From the IMG/VR virus record IMGVR_UViG_3300045988_138808: a stretch of DNA of 43,102 nt; one strand, 5' to 3'. The DNA comes from a virus. Each line of letters begins with the position of its first letter. Position 1 is the first letter of the stretch. The notes beneath the pieces were generated by a model, which did no database searches, was not told the DNA's origin, and saw nothing but the letters and a program-made list of their open reading frames with translations. Below are positions 56 through 38,483 of the stretch, in pieces. A program made the position numbers and the translations under genes.

Positions 56-361
56 AGATACTATAACATATCTATTACATATGTCATTCTCATCTATAAG
101 AGGTGTTATAGAGGTCTTACCCCATCTATTACGAACTCCCCTAGACTTAGCCTCGCATTGTTTGACAAATTCCTCATATTGCAAATCCAAATCAGGCTTT
201 ATCGTTTCAAGCCAAAGTTTACTGTTACAATCAACAGATGGATATTTTAGCAAAGCCTCTAAAATATTTATTTTTTCGTCATCTGGTATATATGACAAAA
301 CACCGCCCCAATCCGGCCTGATTGTCGGTTGAAATGTTGCTGGTTTATATTTTCTAGCCAT
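1..361 (-). CDS. Replication-organizer-like protein, N-terminal part. The gene runs off position 1 and continues at 43102.
   Basis: The minus frame is open from the ATG at 359..361 down to position 2. It is absent from the ORF track because no stop precedes the window edge. My translation is MARKYKPATFQPTIRPDWGGVLSYIPDDEKINILEALLKYPSVDCNSKLWLETIKPDLDLQYEEFVKQCEAKSRGVRNRWGKTSITPLIDENDICNRYVIVS(EG)n. The pattern resembles the DUF6291-type N-terminal domain of phage and plasmid replication proteins (recalled, not searched). Confidence 0.6.
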   Translation of the reverse strand, partial: MARKYKPATFQPTIRPDWGGVLSYIPDDEKINILEALLKYPSVDCNSKLWLETIKPDLDLQYEEFVKQCEAKSRGVRNRWGKTSITPLIDENDICNRYVIVSEGEGEGEGEGEGEGEGEG

Positions 362-510
362 TTTCCACACGTCTTTTAAAAGGAGGGGTATAGACCGCCG
401 AGCGGTTTTAATTGCGTGTGGATATAGATTAACTATACCCCATAATTATACATCATCCAACACGCACTTATTATACTAAACTCTATTCGCCCAAAGTCAA
501 GCATTTTATA

Positions 511-538
511 TTGACAATTTTATAATCTTTTATATAAT
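511..538 (+). promoter_or_regulatory. Sigma70-like promoter, TTGACA-16-TATAAT, pointing rightward
   Basis: TTGACA lies at 511..516 and TATAAT at 533..538, with a 16-nt spacer. No credible plus-strand CDS lies downstream. Confidence 0.5.
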
Positions 539-544
539 GTTCCT

Positions 545-625
545 GTATAATTTACTTGTCAGGGTTGCTTATGCAACTTTCTTAAAGACGGATATGATAT
601 CTATATATTGTGTCCGTCTTTTTTT
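545..625 (+). ncRNA. Candidate ~80-nt small RNA, defined by a promoter and an intrinsic terminator with no ORF
   Basis: It is bounded by the 511..538 promoter and the 584..625 terminator. It contains a small hairpin, GTTGC-TTAT-GCAAC, at about 565..578. Plus-strand ORFs 537..734 and 610..876 start inside the -10 element or the terminator and look spurious. Confidence 0.3.
584..625 (+). terminator. Rho-independent terminator, plus-strand polarity
   Basis: A perfect 9-bp stem pairs AAAGACGGA (584..592) with TCCGTCTTT (613..621) around a 20-nt loop. The stem runs into a T7 tract (619..625). It also sits 15 nt past the VRR-NUC stop, but on the minus strand only TTTAAG follows it. Confidence 0.6.
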
Positions 626-639
626 ATTTAAAGCAAGCG

Positions 640-1080
640 TTATCTCGGTTGAATATTGTTTTTGTGGAAATAATCCTCAACATCGGACACGCTTTTTGCC
701 ACGATATAATGGTGTCCGGGCAGTTTTTCAATAAGGGCTTGAAATTCTTTTTGCTCATCGCTCTGCGTTCCGGCTCGCTCATCAATGACCATGCGTTTGT
801 ATCTATCGCTCCAACGATATGTTGCTGGCTTCTTACATTCTATGCAGACGGTGCCGCCGTTAATCCATACGATTAAATCGGCGATTCCTGCCCGCCTACC
901 CATTGATTTTAATATTGCCCTAGTTACCCTACTTGAAACATTAACACCCGCGTCAGGAGCTGTAAAAACAAAGCCCCTGAGCTCCAAATATTGAACGATG
1001 CTTTTTTGAACCGGTTGTTCCGGGTGTGTATGCTTCCTTTTTGGCTTCATTCCCAGTTCTGGGATGTTAAACAAGCTCAT
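640..1080 (-). CDS. VRR-NUC domain nuclease
   Basis: The motif GIADLIVWINGGTVCIECKK fits the PD...(D/E)xK core of VRR-NUC. I prefer the ATG at 1078..1080 (MSLFNIPE...), which follows a purine-rich RBS, over the track start at 1167. Confidence 0.7.
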   Translation of the reverse strand: MSLFNIPELGMKPKRKHTHPEQPVQKSIVQYLELRGFVFTAPDAGVNVSSRVTRAILKSMGRRAGIADLIVWINGGTVCIECKKPATYRWSDRYKRMVIDERAGTQSDEQKEFQALIEKLPGHHYIVAKSVSDVEDYFHKNNIQPR

Positions 1081-1227
1081 TTCTTCTTTCTTCCAAAAAT
1101 AAAAGCAAAAATCAAAAATGTTATAACGATTGCGAGGTCGTCCGGATGCTCCCCGAAGTATTCGCATAATTCCAAAAGTGTACTTTTATTGTTCATTACT
1201 CATTCTCCCAAGTTTCGCACAAATATT

Positions 1228-1255
1228 AAAAAGTGGGGAGCCGGTAAAACTCCCC
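1228..1255 (-). terminator. Rho-independent terminator after recT
   Basis: The minus strand reads GGGGAG-TTTTACCGG-CTCCCC (plus-strand stems at 1235..1240 and 1250..1255), followed by ACTTTTTAATATTT. Confidence 0.55.
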
Positions 1256-1262
1256 GGATTGA

Positions 1263-2117
1263 TTAAAATGATATTGTTTGTTGTTGCTCTGCTGGTTCTT
1301 CCGGTGCCTTTGGTTCTTCCGGCTCCGGTTCTTCTATAATCTCGCCGGTTTTCTCGTCAAAGGTGGGGATTTCATCATCCAGCGGCAAGGCTTCATAGTC
1401 GGCTTCAACATAGCCCTGTTGCGGTTGCTTTGGCAGCTCATATTCTTCATTGTCAATATCAATGCCTTTTTGCAGTTCGGGGCTTAATGGCAGCCATTTG
1501 GACAATCTTTTGAACACTGTTTTTTTCGACATTTCATCCCGGTCGGTTACCCACGGGCCATTGTTCGGAGATTTTGAACGCTTGCGGATGGCATCAACCT
1601 CATCTTTGCTCATAACCTCGCATTTCTTGGTGCCGTCCTTAAATGTAACAATTGCATAATATGCGTAGGCTTCCCCTCTGGGCTTGCGGAAGTCAATGCG
1701 GTGTTTGGTGATTTCGCCGATATTGTATTCAAATTCGTCATTCTCGCATACTTTGTCGGCATGAATGTTGCTAATCATACCGCTACGCATAGCAAGCTCG
1801 GCAATGCCTTTATAATCAATAATAAGTTGAATGTCGTTTTTGTAGGGGATTAAATAAGCTCTGCGGCCGTCTGGCTCAATGCCAAGCTCGGCACATTTCA
1901 TAAATGCTTCGGCAAGGCTTTTTTTTCCCTCTTTTGTTTGCAATGCCAAAATCAATTTGCTGTTCTTTTTAATGCAGGTTACTGCCACTCTGGCAAATCT
2001 TTCCGGGGTGCAAATCTTTGGCAAAACTCGAACCCAACCGGCCGATAATTCATCCACATATTTTTGAACAACGTCAACCTTTTTTGTTTCTTGAACTACT
2101 GGAACATTTTCCGTCAT
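1263..2117 (-). CDS. recT: RecT-family single-strand annealing recombinase
   Basis: GIEPDGRRAYLIPYKNDIQLIIDYKGIAELAMRSGMISNIHADKVCENDEFEY matches the RecT core. The C-terminal tail is acidic and Pro/Glu-rich. An AGGAAA RBS precedes the start. Confidence 0.88.
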   Translation of the reverse strand: MTENVPVVQETKKVDVVQKYVDELSAGWVRVLPKICTPERFARVAVTCIKKNSKLILALQTKEGKKSLAEAFMKCAELGIEPDGRRAYLIPYKNDIQLIIDYKGIAELAMRSGMISNIHADKVCENDEFEYNIGEITKHRIDFRKPRGEAYAYYAIVTFKDGTKKCEVMSKDEVDAIRKRSKSPNNGPWVTDRDEMSKKTVFKRLSKWLPLSPELQKGIDIDNEEYELPKQPQQGYVEADYEALPLDDEIPTFDEKTGEIIEEPEPEEPKAPEEPAEQQQTISF

Positions 2118-2161
2118 CGTCTTTTCCTTTCTCTGTTATATTAAAATTAAAACACTATAAA

Positions 2162-2188
2162 ATTATAATGTTTTCTTGTAATTGTCAA
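2162..2188 (-). promoter_or_regulatory. Early promoter module for recT, TTGACA-15-TATAAT
   Basis: The minus strand reads GTGTTGACAATTACAAGAAAACATTATAATTTTATAGTGTTTTAATT. It is closely similar to the modules at 3152..3178 and 41656..41682. Confidence 0.45.
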
Positions 2189-2191
2189 CAC

Positions 2192-2230
2192 AAAAAACAA
2201 AAAAAATCCCCAGATTTTCTCCGGGGATTT
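2192..2230 (-). terminator. Rho-independent terminator after the exonuclease gene
   Basis: The minus strand reads AAATCCCC-GGAGAAAATCT-GGGGATTT, followed by TTTTTGTTTTTTG. The plus-strand stems lie at 2204..2211 and 2223..2230. Confidence 0.65.
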
Positions 2231-2237
2231 GTTAGGC

Positions 2238-3125
2238 TTATATTTCTTCCTCTGCTTGCTTGTTTGTTATCCATTGGCTTAAGTGCAGCTCAATAATGTT
2301 TGGGTATGGTTGCCAGATGCTATCGTCCATGGTTTCAGTCCATTGATAGTATTTTTCGGCAATGGTGTCTATAAGGTATCTGGCTCGGTCTTTTGCATAT
2401 TCCACGTCTTCCATGCAATATCGCAAAATGGCAATCATTTCTTCTTCGTCCGGTTTTTTGGACTGCATTATAAAAACGAACTCGCTCGGATATTCTCCGT
2501 ATTTTTCAAAAATCGCCTGACGGTAGACCGCATCTTGCAAATAATAGCTGTTTTTATGCGGCCACTTGATAAAGTTATCTATATCGCCTGATGTTTTGTA
2601 GTCAATAACCACAATGCCGTTCTTTGTGCGTTTTATAGCATCTACCTTGCATTTCATCAATAATCCGGTTTGGTCATCTCTCCACACAATTGGCATTTCT
2701 GTTTTTGCTCCGGCAATGATACTTGCGGCCAACTTATGCCCTCTTAAGTTTGCAATCATCTTTCCGGCACGTTCCCATTCTTCAGATGATACAATAATGC
2801 GTGGGTCTGCAAAATCTTTTATAAATTTTCGGTATGCGGCCGTATCTCTGCCCTTGGCTCCCCAATCGGCAACAACAAATCTTTTCTCTAATTCTTCCGG
2901 CTCAAGCAACATGCAGTGAGCCAACTTGCCAAAAACCAGAGCATCGCTTGGCTCTCTGTCCGCATTGTCTTTGCTGTTCGGGTTTAACGGCGATGTCTTC
3001 CAAAACTTATAAGCACCGCATCCGCCCTCGTTAAATTGTTTAATCTGGCTGGCCGAAAGTGCGGGCAATGCGAAATATTCGTCATCGTTGTTCATATTGT
3101 CAATTTGTTGTATTGTCATCTTCAT
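2238..3125 (-). CDS. PD-(D/E)XK (RecE/Cas4-like) exonuclease, partner of RecT
   Basis: KVDAIKRTKNGIVVIDYKTSGD fits the D...(D/E)xK nuclease motif, and a YYLQDAVYRQ segment follows. The gene is adjacent to recT. AGGAG abuts the first ATG, so the true start may be the second ATG at 3119. Confidence 0.7.
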   Translation of the reverse strand: MKMTIQQIDNMNNDDEYFALPALSASQIKQFNEGGCGAYKFWKTSPLNPNSKDNADREPSDALVFGKLAHCMLLEPEELEKRFVVADWGAKGRDTAAYRKFIKDFADPRIIVSSEEWERAGKMIANLRGHKLAASIIAGAKTEMPIVWRDDQTGLLMKCKVDAIKRTKNGIVVIDYKTSGDIDNFIKWPHKNSYYLQDAVYRQAIFEKYGEYPSEFVFIMQSKKPDEEEMIAILRYCMEDVEYAKDRARYLIDTIAEKYYQWTETMDDSIWQPYPNIIELHLSQWITNKQAEEEI

Positions 3126-3151
3126 CTCCTTTACAATTAAAACAATATAAA

Positions 3152-3178
3152 GTTATAATAAATTATTATAATTGTCAA
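3152..3178 (-). promoter_or_regulatory. Early promoter module for the exonuclease gene, TTGACA-15-TATAAC
   Basis: The minus strand reads TTGTTGACAATTATAATAATTTATTATAACTTTATATTGTTTTAATTGTAAAGGAG. It lies back to back with the plus-strand promoter at 3191..3218. Confidence 0.4.
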
Positions 3179-3190
3179 CAAATAAATGAC

Positions 3191-3218
3191 TTGAAAATAT
3201 TTTTTTTAACAATATAAT
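3191..3218 (+). promoter_or_regulatory. Sigma70-like promoter for the XRE regulator, TTGAAA-16-TATAAT
   Basis: TTGAAA lies at 3191..3196 and TATAAT at 3213..3218. It diverges from the leftward early promoter. Confidence 0.5.
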
Positions 3219-3263
3219 AAACCTGTGTTTAACATCAAGACACGAAACAACAAGGAGAAAACA

Positions 3264-3620
3264 ATGGAGTTAAAAGAATTTCGCTTAAAAAATAACCTCT
3301 CGCAAACAGAATTTGCAAAGATTATCGGAATACCTCGGCAGACTTATCAGACTTACGAATACGGCACAAGAAGCCCGTCAAATAGCAATTTAATCCTCAT
3401 TGAAAATGCAATGCGCAAAATCGAAAGCGAAAGAGCCGATATTAACGCCGCCGTTGACAGGTTGCAAGCCATTAAATCTTATAAAGAAATTCAAAAATAT
3501 TGGGATACTTACCACCAACAAATTGATGATGATTTTTTTGAAGAAGACAAATTTAATCTCTGGTTGATTAAAATTATCATGATTATCATTTTAGTCTTTA
3601 TATTTGCGGTGTTGTGGTAA
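3264..3620 (+). CDS. XRE-family HTH regulator with a C-terminal transmembrane helix
   Basis: MELKEFRLKNNLSQTEFAKIIGIPRQTYQTYEYGTRSPS is a classic HTH_XRE pattern. AAGGAG lies 7 nt upstream of the ATG at 3264. The C-terminus LWLIKIIMIIILVFIFAVLW is strongly hydrophobic. Confidence 0.8.
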   Translation: MELKEFRLKNNLSQTEFAKIIGIPRQTYQTYEYGTRSPSNSNLILIENAMRKIESERADINAAVDRLQAIKSYKEIQKYWDTYHQQIDDDFFEEDKFNLWLIKIIMIIILVFIFAVLW

Positions 3621-3862
3621 TGTTTTATAAGCTGTACATAGGCGACTACAATCCCAAAGGTGGGATGTGCGCCGCTCCGACAATGATTGAGCCAATGGTT
3701 AATTTTAATGGGCTTAGTGGACAAGTTAAGCGTTCGTTAGAGAAAGTGCACCACGGACTTGACTTGTACATAGTTAAGCCAAACGGCGAGGTTTTTGCCT
3801 GGTATCGTGATTTAAGCAAATATTCAAAAGAAGATATCCGGCGCATTTTACAATTTGAATAA
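3620..3862 (+). CDS. Hypothetical protein
   Basis: Its ATG overlaps the XRE stop (TAATG). It is co-oriented with the XRE gene and followed by a terminator. I recognised no motif. Confidence 0.45.
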   Translation: MFYKLYIGDYNPKGGMCAAPTMIEPMVNFNGLSGQVKRSLEKVHHGLDLYIVKPNGEVFAWYRDLSKYSKEDIRRILQFE

Positions 3863-3900
3863 ATTGTGTATAATATAAGAGCCTCTCTTCATCGCAGGGC

Positions 3901-3935
3901 AGACCCTCAAACCAGTAGGTGCGAGGGTCTATTTT
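3901..3935 (+). terminator. Rho-independent terminator between convergent genes
   Basis: AGACCCTC (3901..3908) pairs with GAGGGTCT (3923..3930), followed by ATTTT. The stem overlaps the RNase H stop codon. Confidence 0.6.
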
Positions 3936-4351
3936 CCCTTATATTTCAAACTTCCCAACATCGCCAGAGTATCTGCGAGTTTATTATTGCCGGCCATTTC
4001 GTTACGATGGCCGGTGTGCGCCTTTACTTTGCAAACCTCAATATGGCTTTTTCTTATCTGATAAGCCCAGTATTTGCATTCAAGATGATTGAGATATTGC
4101 TCGCGTGTTCGGGGTTTTTCTTTGATTTGATTGTTGATGTAAAATATGGCGTTTTGGCTGTCTGTACAGATTTTTGCTTGTCCGTGGGTTAAAATACTGG
4201 CCAGATGTATGGCGTGAAGCTCTGCGCCGTTAATCGTCCGGCACTTGGTAAATAAAGCGTATTCCTTTCTGCGCCCGTTGTCGATTATCACAATGCCTAT
4301 ACCGGCAATCCCTCGTTTATCTATCGTTGCATCGGTATAAGCTTCTATCAT
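3929..4351 (-). CDS. Ribonuclease H (RNase HI family)
   Basis: The segments YTDATIDKRGIAGIGIVI...NGAELHAIHLA...ICTDSQ...VKAHTGH...NNKLADTLA follow the D-E-D-H-D arrangement of RNase HI. Confidence 0.85.
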   Translation of the reverse strand: MIEAYTDATIDKRGIAGIGIVIIDNGRRKEYALFTKCRTINGAELHAIHLASILTHGQAKICTDSQNAIFYINNQIKEKPRTREQYLNHLECKYWAYQIRKSHIEVCKVKAHTGHRNEMAGNNKLADTLAMLGSLKYKGK

Positions 4352-4620
4352 TATTTGCCTTTCGTCATTTCCATAAGCGAATGATATTTGACATCATATT
4401 CAACGGCACACTCCGCCAGCTCTTGCGGCGTTGTCCACTCTTGTAGGCAGTTAATCGGCTCAACGCTTACAGGATAGGCAGTTGTCCGACAGCCGCTTAC
4501 GAACAGGACTATCAGAAAGATTAAAGCTCCAATCAAAATTAAGCTTTTCCGTTTCAACAGCCTTTTTGACCTCTGACTTTTGCTTACGGAGTTCCATTTC
4601 ATTTTTAACCAACCTTTCAT
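4351..4620 (-). CDS. o-spanin (outer-membrane lipoprotein), overlapped architecture
   Basis: It has a signal-like segment LILIGALIFLIVLFVSGC with a lipobox Cys. It starts inside the i-spanin gene in another frame and extends past it. Confidence 0.7.
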   Translation of the reverse strand: MKGWLKMKWNSVSKSQRSKRLLKRKSLILIGALIFLIVLFVSGCRTTAYPVSVEPINCLQEWTTPQELAECAVEYDVKYHSLMEMTKGK

Positions 4621-4747
4621 TGTTTATAATAAGGGCATTTTTTTCGGCCTCCAGCGCGGTATTTTCTTTCATAAGGGAATTTATGCGTAAATTTTGATAA
4701 ACGCACCACAACGCCAAAAAAGCTATAATTATGACTAAATATTTCAT
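4460..4747 (-). CDS. i-spanin (N-terminal TM helix plus coiled coil)
   Basis: MKYLVIIIAFLALWCVY forms a TM helix, followed by a heptad-like region, NSLMKENTALEAEKNALIINNERLVKNEMELRKQKSEVKK. The ATG at 4745..4747 overlaps the upstream stop (TAATG). Confidence 0.7.
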   Translation of the reverse strand: MKYLVIIIAFLALWCVYQNLRINSLMKENTALEAEKNALIINNERLVKNEMELRKQKSEVKKAVETEKLNFDWSFNLSDSPVRKRLSDNCLSCKR

Positions 4748-5355
4748 TAGTTGCCCCACTTCAGCAGATAACAACCTGCAAAGACAATCCCGCCACAAAT
4801 TATTTCTGCCCACTTTGTCGGGGCGTTAAGCCAAGAAAGATGAGGTCTTAACCAAGGCTCTTTCTCGTAAAGTGTCCAGCAAAAAGCGTAAACAGGTGAT
4901 ACAGCCAATCCGATTAAAATATATCGCCAGTCAAAAATCATCATCGGAATCATTGGGCAGGTATAACGTAACCCCATATAAATAAAATCATACATAAAAC
5001 CGTACTTATAGTCCGCAACCCCTAACTTTTCAAATAGCCAGTCGCACGGGATATGATACCACCGTTCGTTATACCTTAACAGAGTAGAAACAGCAGGACG
5101 ACCACCACGCCCGATGTCAAAACAACAGCCGTGACCTCTGCTCCAAAATTGGAACTGCAACCAGCAACTAACAACCACCGCAAGCAACCAACATTGCCAA
5201 GAATAAGGATTAATCAAGTATGTTGACATAAAGAGGATAAGCATAAAAGCCGTTTGCAGCCCTCTGTTCCCTAAAATTTTATATTTTTCTTCAGGAAACA
5301 TACCACCAAACCATCTACGAGCAAAACCGCCTAAAATAAAATAAAATAACCACAT
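4747..5355 (-). CDS. Polytopic membrane protein of unknown function within the lysis cassette
   Basis: The protein is 202 aa with several hydrophobic segments and many Trp and Cys residues. It is tightly packed between the endolysin and the spanins. I recognised no family. Confidence 0.55.
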   Translation of the reverse strand: MWLFYFILGGFARRWFGGMFPEEKYKILGNRGLQTAFMLILFMSTYLINPYSWQCWLLAVVVSCWLQFQFWSRGHGCCFDIGRGGRPAVSTLLRYNERWYHIPCDWLFEKLGVADYKYGFMYDFIYMGLRYTCPMIPMMIFDWRYILIGLAVSPVYAFCWTLYEKEPWLRPHLSWLNAPTKWAEIICGGIVFAGCYLLKWGN

Positions 5356-32805: not shown

Positions 32806-34228
32806 TCGGCTTAGCTCCTATGGTATCAATTACTCGGTCGGTTTCATCTCTCAGGCTTGGAATATCGGAGCCGTCAATCATTTCTTCTCGGTCTTCGTCA
32901 TATTCATCAATATCAAGCTCAATATCAAGAATTTTCTTGCTGTTGATTTCTTCGGCATATTGCTTATCGCTGATGATGCCGTCTTCTTTGAACTGACGGA
33001 GTATGTCGGCTCTGGTCTTGTCAACGGTTGCTTGGTCCATTTTGTTAATGTTCCAAAGCGGCTCAAAATCAAGCTCTAAGTTTTGAGATTTTTCCGTCCA
33101 AACATCAAAGCCCCAAATGCAAGATCCAATGATGTCAAGCATCTTGCGATATTTTGGCTCAAGGCGTGTTGTTTGATAGCTGTCGATGTTGTTGTAGTAG
33201 TTTTCAAGGTCGCTTTCTCCGGTCGCACTCAAACCATCGGGAGATTTCCCCAAAAAACGAGTTGCCGGAATATCAGAGCCGGCCGCAAGGATTTGCAGGT
33301 AAGTGTTCAAAAGCTCCGGCACACTTCCAAATGTTGCGGAGTGCTGGGCTATCTCTGTTCCTTTGCCGTCAATGACCGCTCCACGGTATATGCTCAGTTG
33401 CTCGGCAATTTTATCGAGCATGTTTAATGCGGCATTGCCTTGCTTGGTGCTTTGCAAATCAATAAAACGCTCACATTTTACCAACAACACGCTGGCAAGG
33501 TTTACGAGGTGATATGCGCCCTCTTGCGTTCCGGTTGCACGAACAAGGCTGTCATATACTCTGGACAACACGCTCTCGCCAAAGCCTGCCGGATTGTAGC
33601 GGAAGTTTTGCATAAGGTTCATGGATGTGTGATTAAATAATGGGTCGCCATCAAAGACAATTAATCGGCTGACGTGGGTCTTTATGCCGTTTATCATGTA
33701 ATATTTCGGCTTGTCATATTGCGGACTGAATACGTCTGTTTCATATTCGCATTTTGTGATTTTTTCTGTACTAATGACATTTAAGAAAGAAATATCGCTT
33801 TTTTTAAGAGTTTTAAGATTCAAAACTTCTTCGGGGCTGTCGTTTTCATCTTTAACGCCAATAACAATGACGCAACCACCAAGCAATCTCTCTATGGTGG
33901 CCGCACGCTTAAAGTTGTTGTTTACATCGAGATATTTCATATATCTTTCGATGGCTTCAATGTCCGGTTGTTCTAGTCCGGTAATCTTTACCGGAATACG
34001 GAATGCATCCTGAACCGGAATATCCACAATTTTTCCGGCCTCCCAACTGGTATTGTACCAACGCACCCACTCTTGCCACCGGCTGTAAAAGTCGTTTCGA
34101 TAATATGGGTTGCGCGTGTATATGGCGGCCGTTTGCAGGCTTCCGCGGTCTTGTTTTGTGTTTGCACCGGCTCCGGTCAAAATGGTATTAACAACTTTTT
34201 GCGATTTTCTTTTGTTTCTTCGTGTCAT
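32765..34228 (-). CDS. Portal protein (DUF1073-like, from recollection)
   Basis: The 487-aa ORF lies immediately after TerL. The N-terminal region reads WQEWVRWYNTSWEAGKIVDIPVQDAFR and the C-terminus is acidic. Confidence 0.8.
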   Translation of the reverse strand: MTRRNKRKSQKVVNTILTGAGANTKQDRGSLQTAAIYTRNPYYRNDFYSRWQEWVRWYNTSWEAGKIVDIPVQDAFRIPVKITGLEQPDIEAIERYMKYLDVNNNFKRAATIERLLGGCVIVIGVKDENDSPEEVLNLKTLKKSDISFLNVISTEKITKCEYETDVFSPQYDKPKYYMINGIKTHVSRLIVFDGDPLFNHTSMNLMQNFRYNPAGFGESVLSRVYDSLVRATGTQEGAYHLVNLASVLLVKCERFIDLQSTKQGNAALNMLDKIAEQLSIYRGAVIDGKGTEIAQHSATFGSVPELLNTYLQILAAGSDIPATRFLGKSPDGLSATGESDLENYYNNIDSYQTTRLEPKYRKMLDIIGSCIWGFDVWTEKSQNLELDFEPLWNINKMDQATVDKTRADILRQFKEDGIISDKQYAEEINSKKILDIELDIDEYDEDREEMIDGSDIPSLRDETDRVIDTIGAKPNVDSGVKQETGQG

Positions 34229-34240
34229 TTTGTTTTTCCT

Positions 34241-37200
34241 TTATTGTCCGCCCCCAGCATATCGCCAAATTGAATGTGCCATTGATGCGGCATCACAATT
34301 TGATACTAAAATATTATTTGCATAATAGCAACCAGCTCGAACTGTTATATTATAAACCCTTTTCTTTTGCTTTCCTGCGTAGTTCTCTTTTAAGGTACTT
34401 ATCTCGACACCATCGACATATTGTCTGCTCTCTGTGGTCGTTTGGGGTATTAAATCTTCTTCCGCAATCGGGACATATTTTAGTAATATGAAGTTTGGCA
34501 ATGTATTCTTTTTGATGTTTTGAGTGCCAATCTCTTCCCTCTTTTGAGCGATGCCACTCTTTGCACATTTCTCTACCTCTTTTATTTGCTTCTTGCATTT
34601 CAGGTCTTTTCCAAATTTCAGCGGTTTTTTTGCCATGAAGTTTAGCGTGTTCGCTGTGTGATAAAAGCACCAAATTGCTAAAGTCGTTATTATCTTTATT
34701 TTCGTCTTTGTGATGAACGTGATAGCCTTTAGGAATTTCTTTTCCCGAATAAAATTCATAAACAACCCGATGAAGCCGGAATGTTTTTCTTTTTCCGTCA
34801 GCAAAGATTTTATTTTCATAATATCCTGTCTTTGGGTTACGATAGTATTTTTTGCCATTGAACAGTATAAAGATTTTATTTGCCATGAGATTAATTCCTT
34901 TATGGTCAACTTGCTAACCATAGAATAATCAACATTTTCAAGGTTGTCAAAAGAATAGTCGTGTGTTGTATATATTTTGTGGTCTTTAGTTCCGGTTAAT
35001 CCAATATTATCAATAACCGGCTTCATTCTGCTTGTTGTTCGTGTTATTGGAGAAACACCCCAAGGAGTTATGACTAAATCACCAACTTTTAATTCCTCTA
35101 TATTTTTATTTCCCAAAATTGTGGCTACTTTTGTTCCTGCAACAAAACAGCTGTCGTCGTGCGCGTGCGACATGTCTTCGGCAAACAATGCCGCTTCATT
35201 GACTAGATACTGGCTCATTTTATCATCTTTTTTCAATTTTACAAGACCACGATAAACATCCCATGAAAGCTCTCTTGTTCTGCCTACCTTGTCCTCTGGG
35301 TAGTCATATTCTTTTGGCTTCCAACAAATGGCATTGATGCCAGATTGGATGAGCGTTTGCTCCAAGCTGATTCCTGATGCCTTGTCTTCAATGTACATAA
35401 ATGCGGCCGGATTAATTAAGCTGTCGTCCGTCCACTTCCGCCATATCTGAATGGCTTTTTCCAAAAGTTCGGGGAATTCCCACTTGCCGACAATCATATC
35501 ACGCAAACGCATCTCTTTGCGTAAAAGCTCCCAAACTTGGAAGCATGAATAGTCGGCGGTCTTGGTCTTTTTGTATGCGGTGTCGGCCGTTATTATCAGT
35601 TTGCCATCAATTGCGGTATGGTCGGCATCGTACATTACCCACCAATCACGTTGGATGATGTTTCCTTTTTCGGCTACCGGCGATTGCTGATATTGTGCTT
35701 GAAACATGGTATCATTGAATGAGATTTCTTTGATACGCTCGGGGGTGTATTGACTGGCGATGTTGCAAGTGCCGTCCGGCTCAAGCAACGGGCGTATAAT
35801 GCTGTCGAATTTGTATTGCTCAAGCAAATATCCGGATAAGTCTTCCAGATGGAGCCTTTGCTGAATGTTAAATATCGGCACGTTACTATCGTTCAAGCGT
35901 GAGAGCAAGGTTTCATCGTAATACTTGCGGACTTTTTCGCGCATAACCTCAGATTGAATGTCGGCTGGCTTGTTGGCATCATCGCAATTAGAAACTAATA
36001 CTTGACATTTACCAACATACAGATTATGATTTTCATACACAGTAAGACAATAAGAGGTGTGATTATGACAAACAACGCTAATATTATTTACAAAGACATC
36101 CCCGGATATGATGGACTTTATAGAGTTTCCAATTTTGGAGATGTTATAAGCTGCTCTAGAGATGTATTTACGGGAAGCGGAGATAAAAGAAGAATTATTA
36201 AGCTCAAAGAAAAACGACTTAATCCCTCTAATAGAAAAGGTTACAAGGTTGTTAATCTTCGAAAAGATAATAAAACCCTTACCATTGGTGTTCATCAACT
36301 TGTTTTGTGGGCTTTCGTTGGCGTGCAACAAAAAGGAATAGAAGTTAGACACCTTAATAGCAATCCATCTGACGATCGTCTTGAAAATTTGCGATATGGC
36401 ACTAAATCGGAAAATATGCAAGATGCTGTTGAACTTGGTACTTTGGTTTTTTCTCGTTCCAAACTTTCTCGAAAAGATGTTGAAGAAATTGCTAAAGCAA
36501 AAGGAAGTTTGAAAGAGATTGCTCTTGCTTTTAATTGTCATCCCGGAACTGTTCAAGCAATCAAAACAAGAAAAAGTTTCAAAAATTTTGTTAAAGAAAT
36601 TAACTATACGCCCAGAAAAAAGATTGAACTTTCTTCTGATGCTTTGGAAAAAATCAGAGATAAGAACATTCCCAGACAAGAAGTTGCAAAAATTTTTAAC
36701 CTTAGTATTAACCAAATAAAAAGGATTAGAAAAGGTAACAACACAATCTATACTTGTTAAATCCTTTGCTTCAACATAGCCCCTATTCTTTGTCCATACT
36801 TTGTGATTATCTGTGCAAATAAAGCTCTTTCCATTACTTAATTTGACTTCAACAAAGCATTGTTTAGTAGGGGTTATGTTTTTAATATGTCTTTCTATGC
36901 GTTTAAGCTCTGGTCTTTCTTTCTCAAAATTATAACTCCAAACTTTTATATCCTCTTTATTTTCAACAATTTCGCCAATCTTTCTATATCCTTTTTCCGT
37001 TAAAACTAATTCGTCGTACGGAAAACAGATTAACGCCCCGGAGAAGCCTTTTGCTCCTCTTATTCCGCAATTATGAACCAATATTTGACTTTTGGTTACA
37101 AATAGGTTATTGTTGCGACATAAGGTAACACAATAACTGGGGGCGCTATGATTACAGTTGACAATATTGACTATTTTCCTATTCCCGAATTTATTAGACA

Positions 37201-38077
37201 TTATTTCGCTACCCACGGATAAAAAGTCGGCTCTCCGCTCCTCTCCGTTTTTCAAATAAAAGACGTGGTCAGGCGTGCAGTTTATTTTTTCTCCGTTGTC
37301 TAGCTCAACCTTTATATAGGGCGAATTTTCGTTTTTGACATAATCGTATATTGGCTGCAACTCTTTCTGCCTTTTATCAAAATTATAGCTCCAAACTTTC
37401 ACGTCTATTTTGTTTTCTACAATATATCCGAGTTTCATAAATCCCTTTTCTGTTAAGACTTCTGTGTTATAGTCAAAACAGCCAAACCCGGTGATTGTCG
37501 AGCCGATGGACGCAAACAGAATTTGTCCGCCTTTTGCGGTGATGATGCGTTTGCTTGCATATACCGCCTTGCCGGTTTCTTTCAAGAGATATTCTCGCCA
37601 AAAGTCATCAATCGGGTTCTCTTCTTTTTCTTCAACGCCGAACAAGCCGCTACCGTATAGCTCTTTGTATATCGGATGTTCTAAAATCTGAGCCACTTCT
37701 CTGGCAATGTCTGACAAGAGCATTTGCGAGAATGATGTATAAATAAAATTACACCGTGGGTTTTTGGTTAGGCAATAAATGAGCCAATATTTGCAGAGGG
37801 TTGTTTTTCCGGCGCGGGGCGGGATGTTCATACATTCACGGGTTATTCTCAGGTTGTATAGGTCATCAAAAACATTGAACATATCCTTGTGGATACGGTC
37901 CATGATGAAAGGCTTGCCCTCAAGAACTCGGAACATATAACGAAACCAAACCTCAAAACCTGTATCAAGCAATGTCTTGCCTAGATATTCCCGATTGATT
38001 TCGCCCGATAAAACGGTATTATTTTTTTGTTCCTTTTTGGGGCTTGCTTGTTTTTTCTGTTTTTGACTGGCCATCAT
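34241..38077 (-). CDS. terL: Terminase large subunit precursor (1278 aa) containing three inteins. The predicted spliced product is 510 aa.
   Basis: A Walker A motif, PPRAGKTT, occupies residues 86-93. After removing the inteins, a Walker-B-like GALI-CDDANKP is restored, and the nuclease motif HAHDDS-CDAASMA is restored. The exteins are residues 1-199, 337-350, 698-976 and 1261-1278 by my count. Confidence 0.9.
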   Translation of the reverse strand: MMASQKQKKQASPKKEQKNNTVLSGEINREYLGKTLLDTGFEVWFRYMFRVLEGKPFIMDRIHKDMFNVFDDLYNLRITRECMNIPPRAGKTTLCKYWLIYCLTKNPRCNFIYTSFSQMLLSDIAREVAQILEHPIYKELYGSGLFGVEEKEENPIDDFWREYLLKETGKAVYASKRIITAKGGQILFASIGSTITGFGCFDYNTEVLTEKGFMKLGYIVENKIDVKVWSYNFDKRQKELQPIYDYVKNENSPYIKVELDNGEKINCTPDHVFYLKNGEERRADFLSVGSEIMSNKFGNRKIVNIVNCNHSAPSYCVTLCRNNNLFVTKSQILVHNCGIRGAKGFSGALICFPYDELVLTEKGYRKIGEIVENKEDIKVWSYNFEKERPELKRIERHIKNITPTKQCFVEVKLSNGKSFICTDNHKVWTKNRGYVEAKDLTSIDCVVTFSNPFYLVNTKVKNFCNFLSGNVLISDFFQSIRRKFNLFSGRIVNFFNKIFETFSCFDCLNSSGMTIKSKSNLFQTSFCFSNFFNIFSRKFGTRKNQSTKFNSILHIFRFSAISQIFKTIVRWIAIKVSNFYSFLLHANESPQNKLMNTNGKGFIIFSKINNLVTFSIRGIKSFFFELNNSSFISASRKYISRAAYNISKIGNSIKSIISGDVFVNNISVVCHNHTSYCLTVYENHNLYVGKCQVLVSNCDDANKPADIQSEVMREKVRKYYDETLLSRLNDSNVPIFNIQQRLHLEDLSGYLLEQYKFDSIIRPLLEPDGTCNIASQYTPERIKEISFNDTMFQAQYQQSPVAEKGNIIQRDWWVMYDADHTAIDGKLIITADTAYKKTKTADYSCFQVWELLRKEMRLRDMIVGKWEFPELLEKAIQIWRKWTDDSLINPAAFMYIEDKASGISLEQTLIQSGINAICWKPKEYDYPEDKVGRTRELSWDVYRGLVKLKKDDKMSQYLVNEAALFAEDMSHAHDDSCFVAGTKVATILGNKNIEELKVGDLVITPWGVSPITRTTSRMKPVIDNIGLTGTKDHKIYTTHDYSFDNLENVDYSMVSKLTIKELISWQIKSLYCSMAKNTIVTQRQDIMKIKSLLTEKEKHSGFIGLFMNFIREKKFLKAITFITKTKIKIITTLAIWCFYHTANTLNFMAKKPLKFGKDLKCKKQIKEVEKCAKSGIAQKREEIGTQNIKKNTLPNFILLKYVPIAEEDLIPQTTTESRQYVDGVEISTLKENYAGKQKKRVYNITVRAGCYYANNILVSNCDAASMAHSIWRYAGGGQ
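34298..35149 (-). mobile_element. Intein 3 (284 aa) in the TerL nuclease motif
   Basis: It starts CFVAGTKVATILGNKNIEELKVGDLV (block A). Block B is TGTKDHKIY. It ends KRVYNITVRAGCYYANNILVSN, followed by Cys+1 (CDAAS). The boundary codons were checked on the sequence: TGT at 35147..35149, AAT at 34298..34300, TGT at 34295..34297. Confidence 0.8.
34350..34886 (-). CDS. HNH homing endonuclease encoded in the -1 frame inside intein 3
   Basis: LHRVVYEFYSGKEIPKGYHVHHKDENKDNNDFSNLVLLSHSEHAKLH is an HNH motif. The C-terminal CPDCGRRF...CRWC is a zinc ribbon. It has its own ATG, with AAGGA about 10 nt upstream, and its own stop. Confidence 0.8.
   Translation of the reverse strand: MANKIFILFNGKKYYRNPKTGYYENKIFADGKRKTFRLHRVVYEFYSGKEIPKGYHVHHKDENKDNNDFSNLVLLSHSEHAKLHGKKTAEIWKRPEMQEANKRGREMCKEWHRSKEGRDWHSKHQKEYIAKLHITKICPDCGRRFNTPNDHREQTICRWCRDKYLKRELRRKAKEKGL
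36002..36030 (+). promoter_or_regulatory. Sigma70-like promoter TTGACA-17-TATGAT for the antisense HNH gene
   Basis: TTGACA lies at 36002..36007 and TATGAT at 36025..36030. AAGAGGTG then precedes the ATG at 36065. All three elements lie inside the minus-strand intein coding sequence. Confidence 0.55.
36065..36760 (+). CDS. NUMOD4-HNH-NUMOD1-type homing endonuclease, antisense within intein 2
   Basis: IYKDIPGYDGLYRVSNFGDVIS resembles NUMOD4. HQLVLWAFVG...VRHLNSNPSDDRLENLRYGTKSENMQDA is an HNH_3 motif. Two HTH-like segments follow: LKEIALAFNCHPGTVQAIK and RQEVAKIFNLSINQIKRIR. I prefer the ATG at 36065, which has a strong RBS, over the track TTG at 36002. Confidence 0.85.
   Translation: MTNNANIIYKDIPGYDGLYRVSNFGDVISCSRDVFTGSGDKRRIIKLKEKRLNPSNRKGYKVVNLRKDNKTLTIGVHQLVLWAFVGVQQKGIEVRHLNSNPSDDRLENLRYGTKSENMQDAVELGTLVFSRSKLSRKDVEEIAKAKGSLKEIALAFNCHPGTVQAIKTRKSFKNFVKEINYTPRKKIELSSDALEKIRDKNIPRQEVAKIFNLSINQIKRIRKGNNTIYTC
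37070..37480 (-). mobile_element. Intein 1 (137-aa mini-intein) in the TerL ATPase domain
   Basis: It starts CFDYNTEVLTEKGFMKLGYIVENKIDVKVW. Block B is CTPDHVFY. It ends SYCVTLCRNNNLFVTKSQILVHN, followed by Cys+1 (CGIRG). The boundary codons were checked: TGT at 37478..37480, AAT at 37070..37072, TGC at 37067..37069. Confidence 0.8.
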
Positions 38078-38483
38078 TTAATACTTCTTGAATATGCTTG
38101 ATGATATTGTTTTGGTCTTGCTCGGTAACAAAGACAGTTGATTGCCCAAGGTTGCCGCTTATGACCTGCTCCGGCATCTCTCCGGCCGTATCTCTCACAA
38201 ACTGAGCCGCTTTTACATCTTGGTCTTTTATCGCCTTGTCGAACATAGCCATTGCCAACACCATGCCATTGGTCAAATCTTCCGGGTTGATTTCGGGGAA
38301 TAGCTGTTTTGACTTTGCAGCGATGATTTCGTGCGGTTTCATCTCAAGCAATGCCTGTGTCAGTTCTTTCAGGCTTTTCTTTCGTCTTCTGGCATCGGCT
38401 GATGCTTTGCCGCCCATAGAACCATAAAAGTGAGCTTCTTCCGAGGTGTAGACTTTTAGTGTGTTCTTATTTCCTCTTGCCAT
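38019..38483 (-). CDS. terS: Terminase small subunit (putative)
   Basis: The ATG at 38481..38483 follows GGAGG (MARGNKNTLKVYTSEEAHFYGSMGGKASADARRRKK...). The gene lies directly upstream of TerL and overlaps it. Confidence 0.6.
   Translation of the reverse strand: MARGNKNTLKVYTSEEAHFYGSMGGKASADARRRKKSLKELTQALLEMKPHEIIAAKSKQLFPEINPEDLTNGMVLAMAMFDKAIKDQDVKAAQFVRDTAGEMPEQVISGNLGQSTVFVTEQDQNNIIKHIQEVLNDGQSKTEKTSKPQKGTKK

Follow-up and report, generated by a model that had tools for sequence, protein, structure and literature searches.

The viral record IMGVR_UViG_3300045988_138808 is a stretch of 43,102 nucleotides (nt), hereafter the window, that resembles a phage genome and contains about 58 open reading frames (ORFs), nearly all of them on the minus strand. 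One of these ORFs, terL, encodes the precursor of the terminase large subunit (TerL) and contains three inteins (Table 1). The middle of intein 2 is open on both strands: the plus strand carries an intact homing-endonuclease gene, HEG1, and the minus strand remains part of the terL frame. This antisense layout is real, rare and conserved, and the open reading of both strands is kept by selection.

Table 1. Features of the terL region, with positions counted from the first nucleotide of the window.
Feature	Position	Strand	Description
terL precursor ORF	34241..38077	-	1278 amino acids, stop-free; three inteins
Intein 1	37070..37480	-	mini-intein of 137 amino acids; PF14890, E = 5e-11
Remnant 5' end of deleted endonuclease gene	37148..37192	+	MITVDNIDYFPIPEF; first 15 codons
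Intein 2	35987..37027	-	347 amino acids, precursor residues 351-697; in Walker B (GALI/C...VSN/CDD)
N-terminal splicing region of intein 2	36761..37027	-	Cys1; block B C-T-D-N-H
Linker of intein 2	36065..36760	-	precursor residues 440-671, intein residues 90-321; antisense translation of HEG1
C-terminal splicing region of intein 2	35987..36064	-	H..SYCLTV..NHN....VSN, then Cys+1
HEG1	36065..36760	+	231 amino acids; NUMOD4-HNH_3, I-HmuI-like homing-endonuclease gene
Shine-Dalgarno-like sequence	36052..36059	+	AAGAGGTG, read from the sequence; ends 5 nt before the HEG1 ATG
Sigma-70-like promoter TTGACA-17-TATGAT	36002..36030	+	11/12 matches; antisense to the codons of the C-terminal splicing block
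Intein 3	34298..35149	-	284 amino acids; nuclease-domain motif HDDS/C...VSN/C
HEG2	34350..34886	-	178 amino acids; HNH_3, E = 2.9e-16; phrog_15471, E = 3.2e-28
Promoter-like TTGACA-17-TATTCT	34922..34950	-	upstream of HEG2; 10/12, consensus match only

The product of HEG1 exceeded the curated Pfam cut-offs for NUMOD4 (expectation value, E = 1.9e-11; 44.4 bits against a cut-off of 23.4) and for HNH_3 (E = 9.6e-11; 41.6 bits against 24.8). Furthermore, it matched the HNH endonuclease family phrog_59 (E = 3.9e-41) and, over residues 9-134, the homing endonuclease I-HmuI (PDB 1U3E; E = 3.6e-9). An alignment of two copies, those of the window and of the cultured Escherichia phage BUCT618, showed H96, N108 and N117 to be identical. 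Against 1U3E, H96 and N117 coincide with its DH…N residues, which comprise the catalytic His and a metal-ligand Asn of the beta-beta-alpha-metal motif. An earlier reading of this DNA, made without database searches (the sequence-only reading), had labelled the gene NUMOD4-HNH-NUMOD1. The first two domains of that label stand. NUMOD1 was not confirmed: the C-terminal part gave only sub-threshold helix-turn-helix matches (residues 130-166 and 196-224) and no NUMOD1 at E <= 0.01.

HEG1 is preceded by candidate expression signals of its own. Homologs of HEG1 have GGAG/AGG-type motifs at the same position as the Shine-Dalgarno-like sequence, and the sigma-70-like promoter is the best-scoring promoter-like site within 34000..38300. 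All eight nested genes that were scanned had such a site, with 9-11 of 12 matches, a 17-nt spacer and a distance of 34 or 46-47 nt to the ATG. The block 36001..37000 has the lowest guanine-cytosine (GC) content (0.327) and is the only one in that part of the window with a clearly non-negative AT skew, which fits a gene of foreign origin on the other strand.

HEG1 and terL share their triplet boundaries, since the codon starts of both are congruent to 2 modulo 3, and the two frames are thus antisense codon for codon. The ATG of HEG1 is the complement of His671 of the precursor, and its TAA stop is the complement of Leu440. In this register TTA, CTA and TCA are forbidden codons, because their complements are stops. 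None of them occurs among the 231 codons of HEG1, despite 18 Leu and 16 Ser residues; the Leu codons are CTT (12), CTC (1) and TTG (5). The common register, the missing codons and the unbroken terL frame through intein 2 had all been pointed out in the sequence-only reading, and each was found as described. Forbidden codons are freely used elsewhere in the window, as had likewise been noted for TTA in the XRE gene: the plus-strand ORF at 81..332, where they are densest, has 14 in 83 codons.

On either side of HEG1 the minus strand encodes intein splicing regions, in accordance with the splicing blocks recognised in the sequence-only reading. PF14890 (Intein_splicing) matched intein 2 over residues 8-339, including both ends (E = 2.2e-13; 50.7 bits against a cut-off of 35.8). 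The intein starts with CFPYDELV…, contains the TxxH motif of block B as C-T-D-N-H, and ends with …VLVSN/CDD. C1, T72, H75, C327 and N347 are invariant in an alignment of 10 inteins, and Cys+1 is present in all copies. Intein 2 was modelled with AlphaFold2 on a 10-sequence alignment. Residues 1-100 and 306-347 obtained a predicted local distance difference test score (pLDDT) of 74-89, with confident beta structure in the N-terminal splicing region and a pLDDT of 73-86 in the C-terminal one. The top Foldseek matches in the PDB, which concern the confident part of the model, were all intein splicing domains (E = 4e-7 and weaker), including the NrdJ-1, Ssp DnaE, DnaB and RecA mini-inteins, and the best was the split-intein fusion 8UBS. 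As a protein-homology query, intein 2 retrieved only two weak Hint matches. Together these data support the assignment of intein 2 as a class-1 intein at Walker B of TerL; splicing itself is predicted. A group I intron was also considered. It was rejected, because an Rfam scan of 34000..38300 found no RNA family at E <= 0.1, group I introns included, and because the host frame is open and flanked by Hint blocks.

In-silico removal of the three inteins left a 510-amino-acid product that matched phrog_38, 'terminase large subunit' (E = 1.5e-78), and Pfam Terminase_6C. The gene lies between a terS-like gene and a portal gene (Phage_portal_3; E = 7e-68), in the order terS-like gene, terL, portal. 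A megablast search of the terL region against GenBank phages gave no match.

The linker that connects the two splicing regions had been described as having no recognisable domain. Indeed, profile scans against Pfam and PHROGs found no family match. The linker consists largely of Ser (15%), Phe (15%), Ile (12%) and Asn (12%), and intein residues 101-305, which lie inside it, were modelled with a pLDDT of only 26-48. A phmmer search with the linker returned 15 proteins at E <= 1e-3, six of these at E <= 1e-10 (best 3e-29). By contrast, tblastn of the linker against phages gave no match, which implies that the linker is too diverged or was masked as low complexity.

We calculated how easily a gene of this length would avoid the forbidden codons by chance. 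Their frequency in the other genes of the window is 3.4%. The probability of 231 clean codons is about 3.7e-4 from the codon frequencies of the window, and falls to 7.9e-5 when nothing but the choice among synonyms at Leu and Ser is considered. The rough, uncorrected estimate of the sequence-only reading was 1e-5; the comparison of nested and free-standing genes given below is a much stronger test. In the 57 other genes of the window, the longest codon-aligned antisense open run was 178 codons. For an oddity picked by hand, such window-only statistics are suggestive rather than overwhelming, and it is the comparative evidence that decides.

Further copies were gathered from IMG/VR, searched with HEG1, and from 1.84 billion representative proteins, to which the linker was compared by phmmer, after which the encoding contigs were retrieved. 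In total, 14 nested copies were found, i.e. the window and 13 others, among them BUCT618. Their mutual identity ranges from 29 to 93%, and in each of them the endonuclease ORF is intact (215-244 amino acids). In all nested copies, comprising every full-length homolog found, the endonuclease gene is antisense to a terL ORF that is long and open, and the codons of the two are aligned. The 14 nested genes contain no forbidden codon in 3174 codons, with 223 Leu and 196 Ser. In contrast, the eight free-standing relatives contain 23 forbidden codons in 1348, with one to seven in each, and their antisense frame is open for at most 141 codons. The chance of a clean nested gene ranges from 7e-3 to 7e-7 per lineage.

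A comparison of two nested copies, on contigs L004 and L006, shows which frame is under selection. Within the overlap 66 of 690 nt differ, and 53 of these 66 differences are at third codon positions of the endonuclease. In the endonuclease frame, 47 of the codon differences are synonymous and 16 non-synonymous, as opposed to 4 synonymous and 59 non-synonymous in the intein frame. Hence, 59 of the 63 differing codons alter an amino acid of the linker, and none creates a stop. Outside the overlap, in the adjoining splicing regions and the extein, it is instead the third positions of the terL frame that are biased towards differences. These results imply that the endonuclease frame is under purifying selection, while the linker is merely kept stop-free. 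The arrangement is of old date and has been conserved in TerL lineages that have diverged, with the endonuclease gene intact. The intein peptide over HEG1 is unconserved and has no recognisable domain, its sole detectable constraint being the absence of stop codons. This constraint is met at no cost in amino acids, by avoiding TTA, CTA and TCA.

The same pair of contigs provides evidence of mobility. Between L004 and L006 the intein has diverged by 10-13% and the C-extein by 29%. An intein that is far less diverged than its extein is a classical sign of horizontal transfer. We also compared contigs with exteins near-identical to those of the window for the presence and absence of inteins. L002 has intein 2 and lacks inteins 1 and 3; L003 has inteins 2 and 3 and lacks intein 1; L019 has a full-size intein 1 and intein 3 and lacks intein 2; and the window has all three, intein 1 as a mini-intein. 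Among close relatives, the three intein sites are thus variously empty, occupied, or occupied by an intein from which the endonuclease has been deleted. The insertion point of intein 2 agrees with a TerL that has no intein at this site, a check that the sequence-only reading had proposed: L019 is colinear, and its FSGALVLDDANKP corresponds to FSGALI/(intein)/CDDANKP in the window. The intein-less counterpart of the intein 2 site has the sequence …GCGTTAGTCCTGGACGATGCAAAC…, and the sequence of L019 around empty site 2 is GCGTTAGTC/CTGGACGATGCAAAC.

Intein 1 lies 14 codons upstream of intein 2 and is paralogous to its splicing domain. It equals the 328-amino-acid intein 1 of L019 minus an in-frame deletion of 573 base pairs (bp), and the flanks of the deletion match at 277 of 287 and 118 of 124 nt. 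Intein 1 of L019 contains its own antisense NUMOD4-HNH gene of 215 amino acids, in the same register as HEG1 and 33% identical to it. The remnant in the window is identical to the start of this ORF. Judging from these alignments, the mini-intein of the window derives from an intein with a complete antisense endonuclease gene, a form found in L019 and L044. The terL gene of L044 (1501..6081; protein P0001, 1526 amino acids) has three inteins: a LAGLIDADG-type intein in the Walker A P-loop (PPRSAK/C…HN/T), and antisense-endonuclease inteins at sites 1 and 2.

The position of the Walker B junction varies slightly. In the window, L001, L004, L005 and proteins P0002-P0012, the +1 Cys stands 0-3 residues before the Asp-Asp pair (C/DD, C/IDD, C/LVDD, C/IIIDD). 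By this comparison, the insertion point seems to have shifted from lineage to lineage, by as many as three codons, for which ordinary homing is no explanation.

Taken together, the best explanation is very probably that the endonuclease loop of intein 2 is filled by an inverted homing-endonuclease gene of the free-standing type, which is expressed independently and homes while the intein frame is kept open. The endonuclease would be made from its own antisense transcript, using the sigma-70-like promoter and the ribosome-binding site inside the antisense of the C-terminal splicing block. During co-infection it would nick or cut intein-less terL alleles at Walker B, and the intein, with the endonuclease gene inside it, would be copied into that allele during repair. 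The terminase would be translated as a single precursor, in which the Hint halves associate around a junk loop of about 230 residues. Cis-splicing would then restore TerL, with the loop being tolerated where an endonuclease domain normally sits. Because TerL is essential, only stop-free insertions would survive. Every forbidden codon has synonyms, so that among the antisense registers the codon-aligned one should be the easiest to keep open, and it is probably favoured for that reason. The same model has been put forward for endonucleases of other types (Gosselin et al. 2025).

Several observations weigh against this explanation. The -10 box of the HEG1 promoter overlaps the conserved 'NHN' codons of the intein. 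Since it is the complement of these codons, conservation of the promoter is confounded and provides no proof of function. Furthermore, a Phe/Ser/Ile-rich loop of 230 residues might impair folding of the precursor, and AlphaFold2 gives no information on splicing efficiency. Finally, the 14 copies probably stem from one or two insertion events and not from as many separate origins, even though their codons have since been replaced many times.

The antisense frame might instead be open through a mere coincidence of composition or codon bias, without any selective meaning. To this we give next to no credence: the window was indeed picked in a scan for oddities, its corrected probability taken alone is only about 1e-4, and in high-GC lineages the chance per gene is about 1e-2, but the complete absence of forbidden codons from 14 diverged nested genes, their presence in each of the eight free-standing relatives, the 59 changes of the linker between L004 and L006 without a stop, and the limit of 178 codons on other antisense runs in the window all contradict it. 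Another alternative is that the linker is a functional domain in its own right, so that the overlap would be a case of dual coding. The phmmer matches do point to weak conservation of the linker, and AlphaFold2 draws helices in it. This conservation, however, mirrors that of the endonuclease, as the predominance of non-synonymous differences in the intein frame shows. Together with the low pLDDT, the lack of a family match, and the loss of 191 such codons from intein 1 of the window, which is nonetheless kept in an intact terL ORF, this makes dual coding very improbable.

It is just as hard to believe that HEG1 has split the intein into halves that are translated separately and spliced in trans, with the continuous frame tolerated and unused. 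Free-standing endonuclease genes between the halves of split inteins are known (Dassa et al. 2009, PMC2677866), and the best Foldseek match of intein 2 was a split-intein fusion. Yet there is no stop after the N-terminal half and no evident restart, the ORF is continuous in the window and in 13 of the 13 other copies, and a split layout gives no reason for 220-244 stop-free antisense codons in every lineage. A further possibility is domestication, in which the endonuclease no longer homes and serves as a packaging-associated HNH protein or provides an antisense RNA by which terL is regulated. A perfectly complementary transcript of 696 nt would inevitably pair with the terL mRNA. Also, HNH proteins encoded beside terminase genes assist packaging in some cos phages. 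The architecture of HEG1 is that of an I-HmuI-type homing enzyme, however, including a C-terminal region with helix-turn-helix-like matches. Moreover, the close relative L019 lacks intein 2 and its gene, which implies that HEG1 is dispensable, and the low divergence of the intein relative to the exteins is a signature of transfer. Domestication therefore appears decidedly unlikely. The adjacency of HNH and terminase genes is also noted in PMC3592412.

The homing explanation leaves room for a joint reading in which the antisense layout is more than a tolerated accident. The complementarity over 696 nt could provide antisense or temporal control of the terminase, with early expression of the endonuclease against late transcription of terL. 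In addition, one endonuclease could mobilise two inteins, as sites 1 and 2 are 42 bp apart, by co-conversion. If true, co-conversion would allow a mini-intein to be maintained although it has no endonuclease gene of its own. We consider this combination of antisense or temporal control and co-conversion rather unlikely.

Intein 3 houses a second endonuclease gene, HEG2, about which the sequence-only reading was silent, as it was about the loss of the endonuclease from intein 1. Intein 3 matched Hint_2 with E = 6.9e-6 and 26.9 bits, which is below the Pfam cut-off of 28.4. Its empty site in L002 reads HKNDDSVDSASM. HEG2 lies on the same strand as terL, and its ATG starts 2 nt after a terL codon start. 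HEG2 shares this offset with its counterparts in L018-L020, L031 and L032, and proteins P0004 and P0007 show it too. The endonucleases of L031 and L032 are diverged (62% and 44% identity) and reside at the equivalent HDD/C site of unrelated terminases, which are T4-like by eye. Substitutions in HEG2 favour third codon positions of the endonuclease, with 8 amino-acid differences in the endonuclease versus 19 in the overlapping frame. Free-standing relatives of HEG2 have no open alternative frame. When HEG2 was resampled synonymously, the terL register stayed open in 5.5% of the trials, and the case for HEG2 therefore rests on conservation. An HNH domain related to HEG2 was also found in frame, inside a canonical intein of a 1509-amino-acid ORF (343..4872) on L034 that reads by eye like a ribonucleotide reductase. 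This may be an in-frame equivalent of HEG2 with its shifted frame.

BUCT618 is an isolated Escherichia phage. The antisense arrangement lies inside its only terL gene, which is annotated as one terminase coding sequence. Because this phage has been cultured and its sole terL has this structure, the precursor arguably yields a working terminase, and the arrangement is compatible with a viable phage. A full-text literature search found no paper mentioning BUCT618. Both the gene calls on five metagenomic contigs (L040-L044) and the GenBank record of BUCT618 list terL alone at this position and leave the antisense endonuclease genes unannotated. Such endonuclease genes are therefore likely to be under-annotated.

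I-HmuI, the HNH nicking enzyme of the group I intron of Bacillus phage SPO1, is the closest solved relative of HEG1. It is encoded in the sense direction in the loop of its intron, and hence puts no coding constraint on its host. HEG1, in contrast, is antisense inside a translated intein.

The sequence-only reading had regarded the arrangement as new. This claim fails, because open inteins with endonuclease genes in antisense or out of frame were already on record. In actinophages, 63 of 784 inteins were non-canonical, among them cases with antisense LAGLIDADG or VSR-like endonuclease ORFs and others with an EndoVII-like ORF in frame 3 (Gosselin, Arsenault & Gogarten, bioRxiv 10.1101/2025.01.02.630785). 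Terminase large subunits were among the four host proteins in that survey and provided many of its cases, and the proposed origin is the invasion of a mini-intein by a free-standing endonuclease gene; there is also evidence that horizontal transfer continues. That paper cites older examples of the antisense layout, from Synechocystis dnaX and a Chloroflexus SpoVR-like protein (Gorbalenya 1998; Gogarten 2002, as cited by Gosselin et al.). Intein 2 resembles the non-canonical actinophage inteins in its opposite-strand endonuclease ORF between the splicing blocks, its open extein and intein frame, its terminase host and the evidence of transfer, and those inteins have mini-intein invasion as their proposed origin. 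Intein 2 differs from the antisense actinophage inteins in its enzyme, which is of the I-HmuI-like NUMOD4-HNH_3 type, as HNH endonucleases occurred only in frame in the actinophage survey. Its hosts differ as well, being one Escherichia coli phage and metagenomic contigs rather than actinophages. Beyond that survey, the present analysis puts numbers, over 14 copies, on the avoidance of stops, on the register and on frame-specific selection. A full-text search of the literature on antisense and out-of-frame inteins, with most subscription journals outside its scope, found no antisense NUMOD4-HNH (I-HmuI-like) intein. What is new is thus the occurrence of the I-HmuI-like HNH type in the antisense layout, and in new phages; the layout itself was already known.

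Other known systems resemble parts of this locus. Intein 3 with HEG2 is similar to the EndoVII-like frame-3 inteins, to the LAGLIDADG gene of the cyanobacterial dnaX intein, an out-of-frame +2 ORF under frame-specific selection (Phillips et al. 2026, bioRxiv 10.64898/2026.09.14.751524), and to ShiLan, where an HNH endonuclease that is out of frame lies hidden in a phage methylase (Arsenault et al. 2025, PMC11855218), in that the shifted-frame endonuclease is selected and the host frame relaxed. Unlike ShiLan, which has no splicing domain, HEG2 is an HNH_3 gene in a bona fide intein, and it resides in the same gene as the antisense case. In fractured genes, split inteins have a free-standing GIY-YIG or VSR-like endonuclease gene between their halves (Dassa et al. 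2009). They share with intein 2 an endonuclease gene of the free-standing type, with its own control elements, in the loop of an intein, and the same evolutionary model. Their host, however, consists of two trans-spliced ORFs, whereas the frame is continuous in every copy found here. In canonical in-frame HNH inteins, which the L034 intein with its HEG2-related HNH resembles, the endonuclease is part of a single polypeptide and needs no separate expression signals.

Our results extend the inteins with hidden endonucleases to the I-HmuI-like HNH family and beyond actinophages, with BUCT618 as a cultured phage in which the predictions can be tested. A single gene and its relatives display several stages of the intein life cycle, in an unusually complete set: a full antisense element, an endonuclease-deleted form, empty sites in relatives, and a second, frame-shifted endonuclease. 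The overlap of HEG1 and terL offers a quantitative example of how overlapping genes can coexist, in that one keeps its protein and the other is just kept stop-free, through three banned codons. These findings support the model of intein origin in which the splicing domain came first and the endonuclease invaded later.

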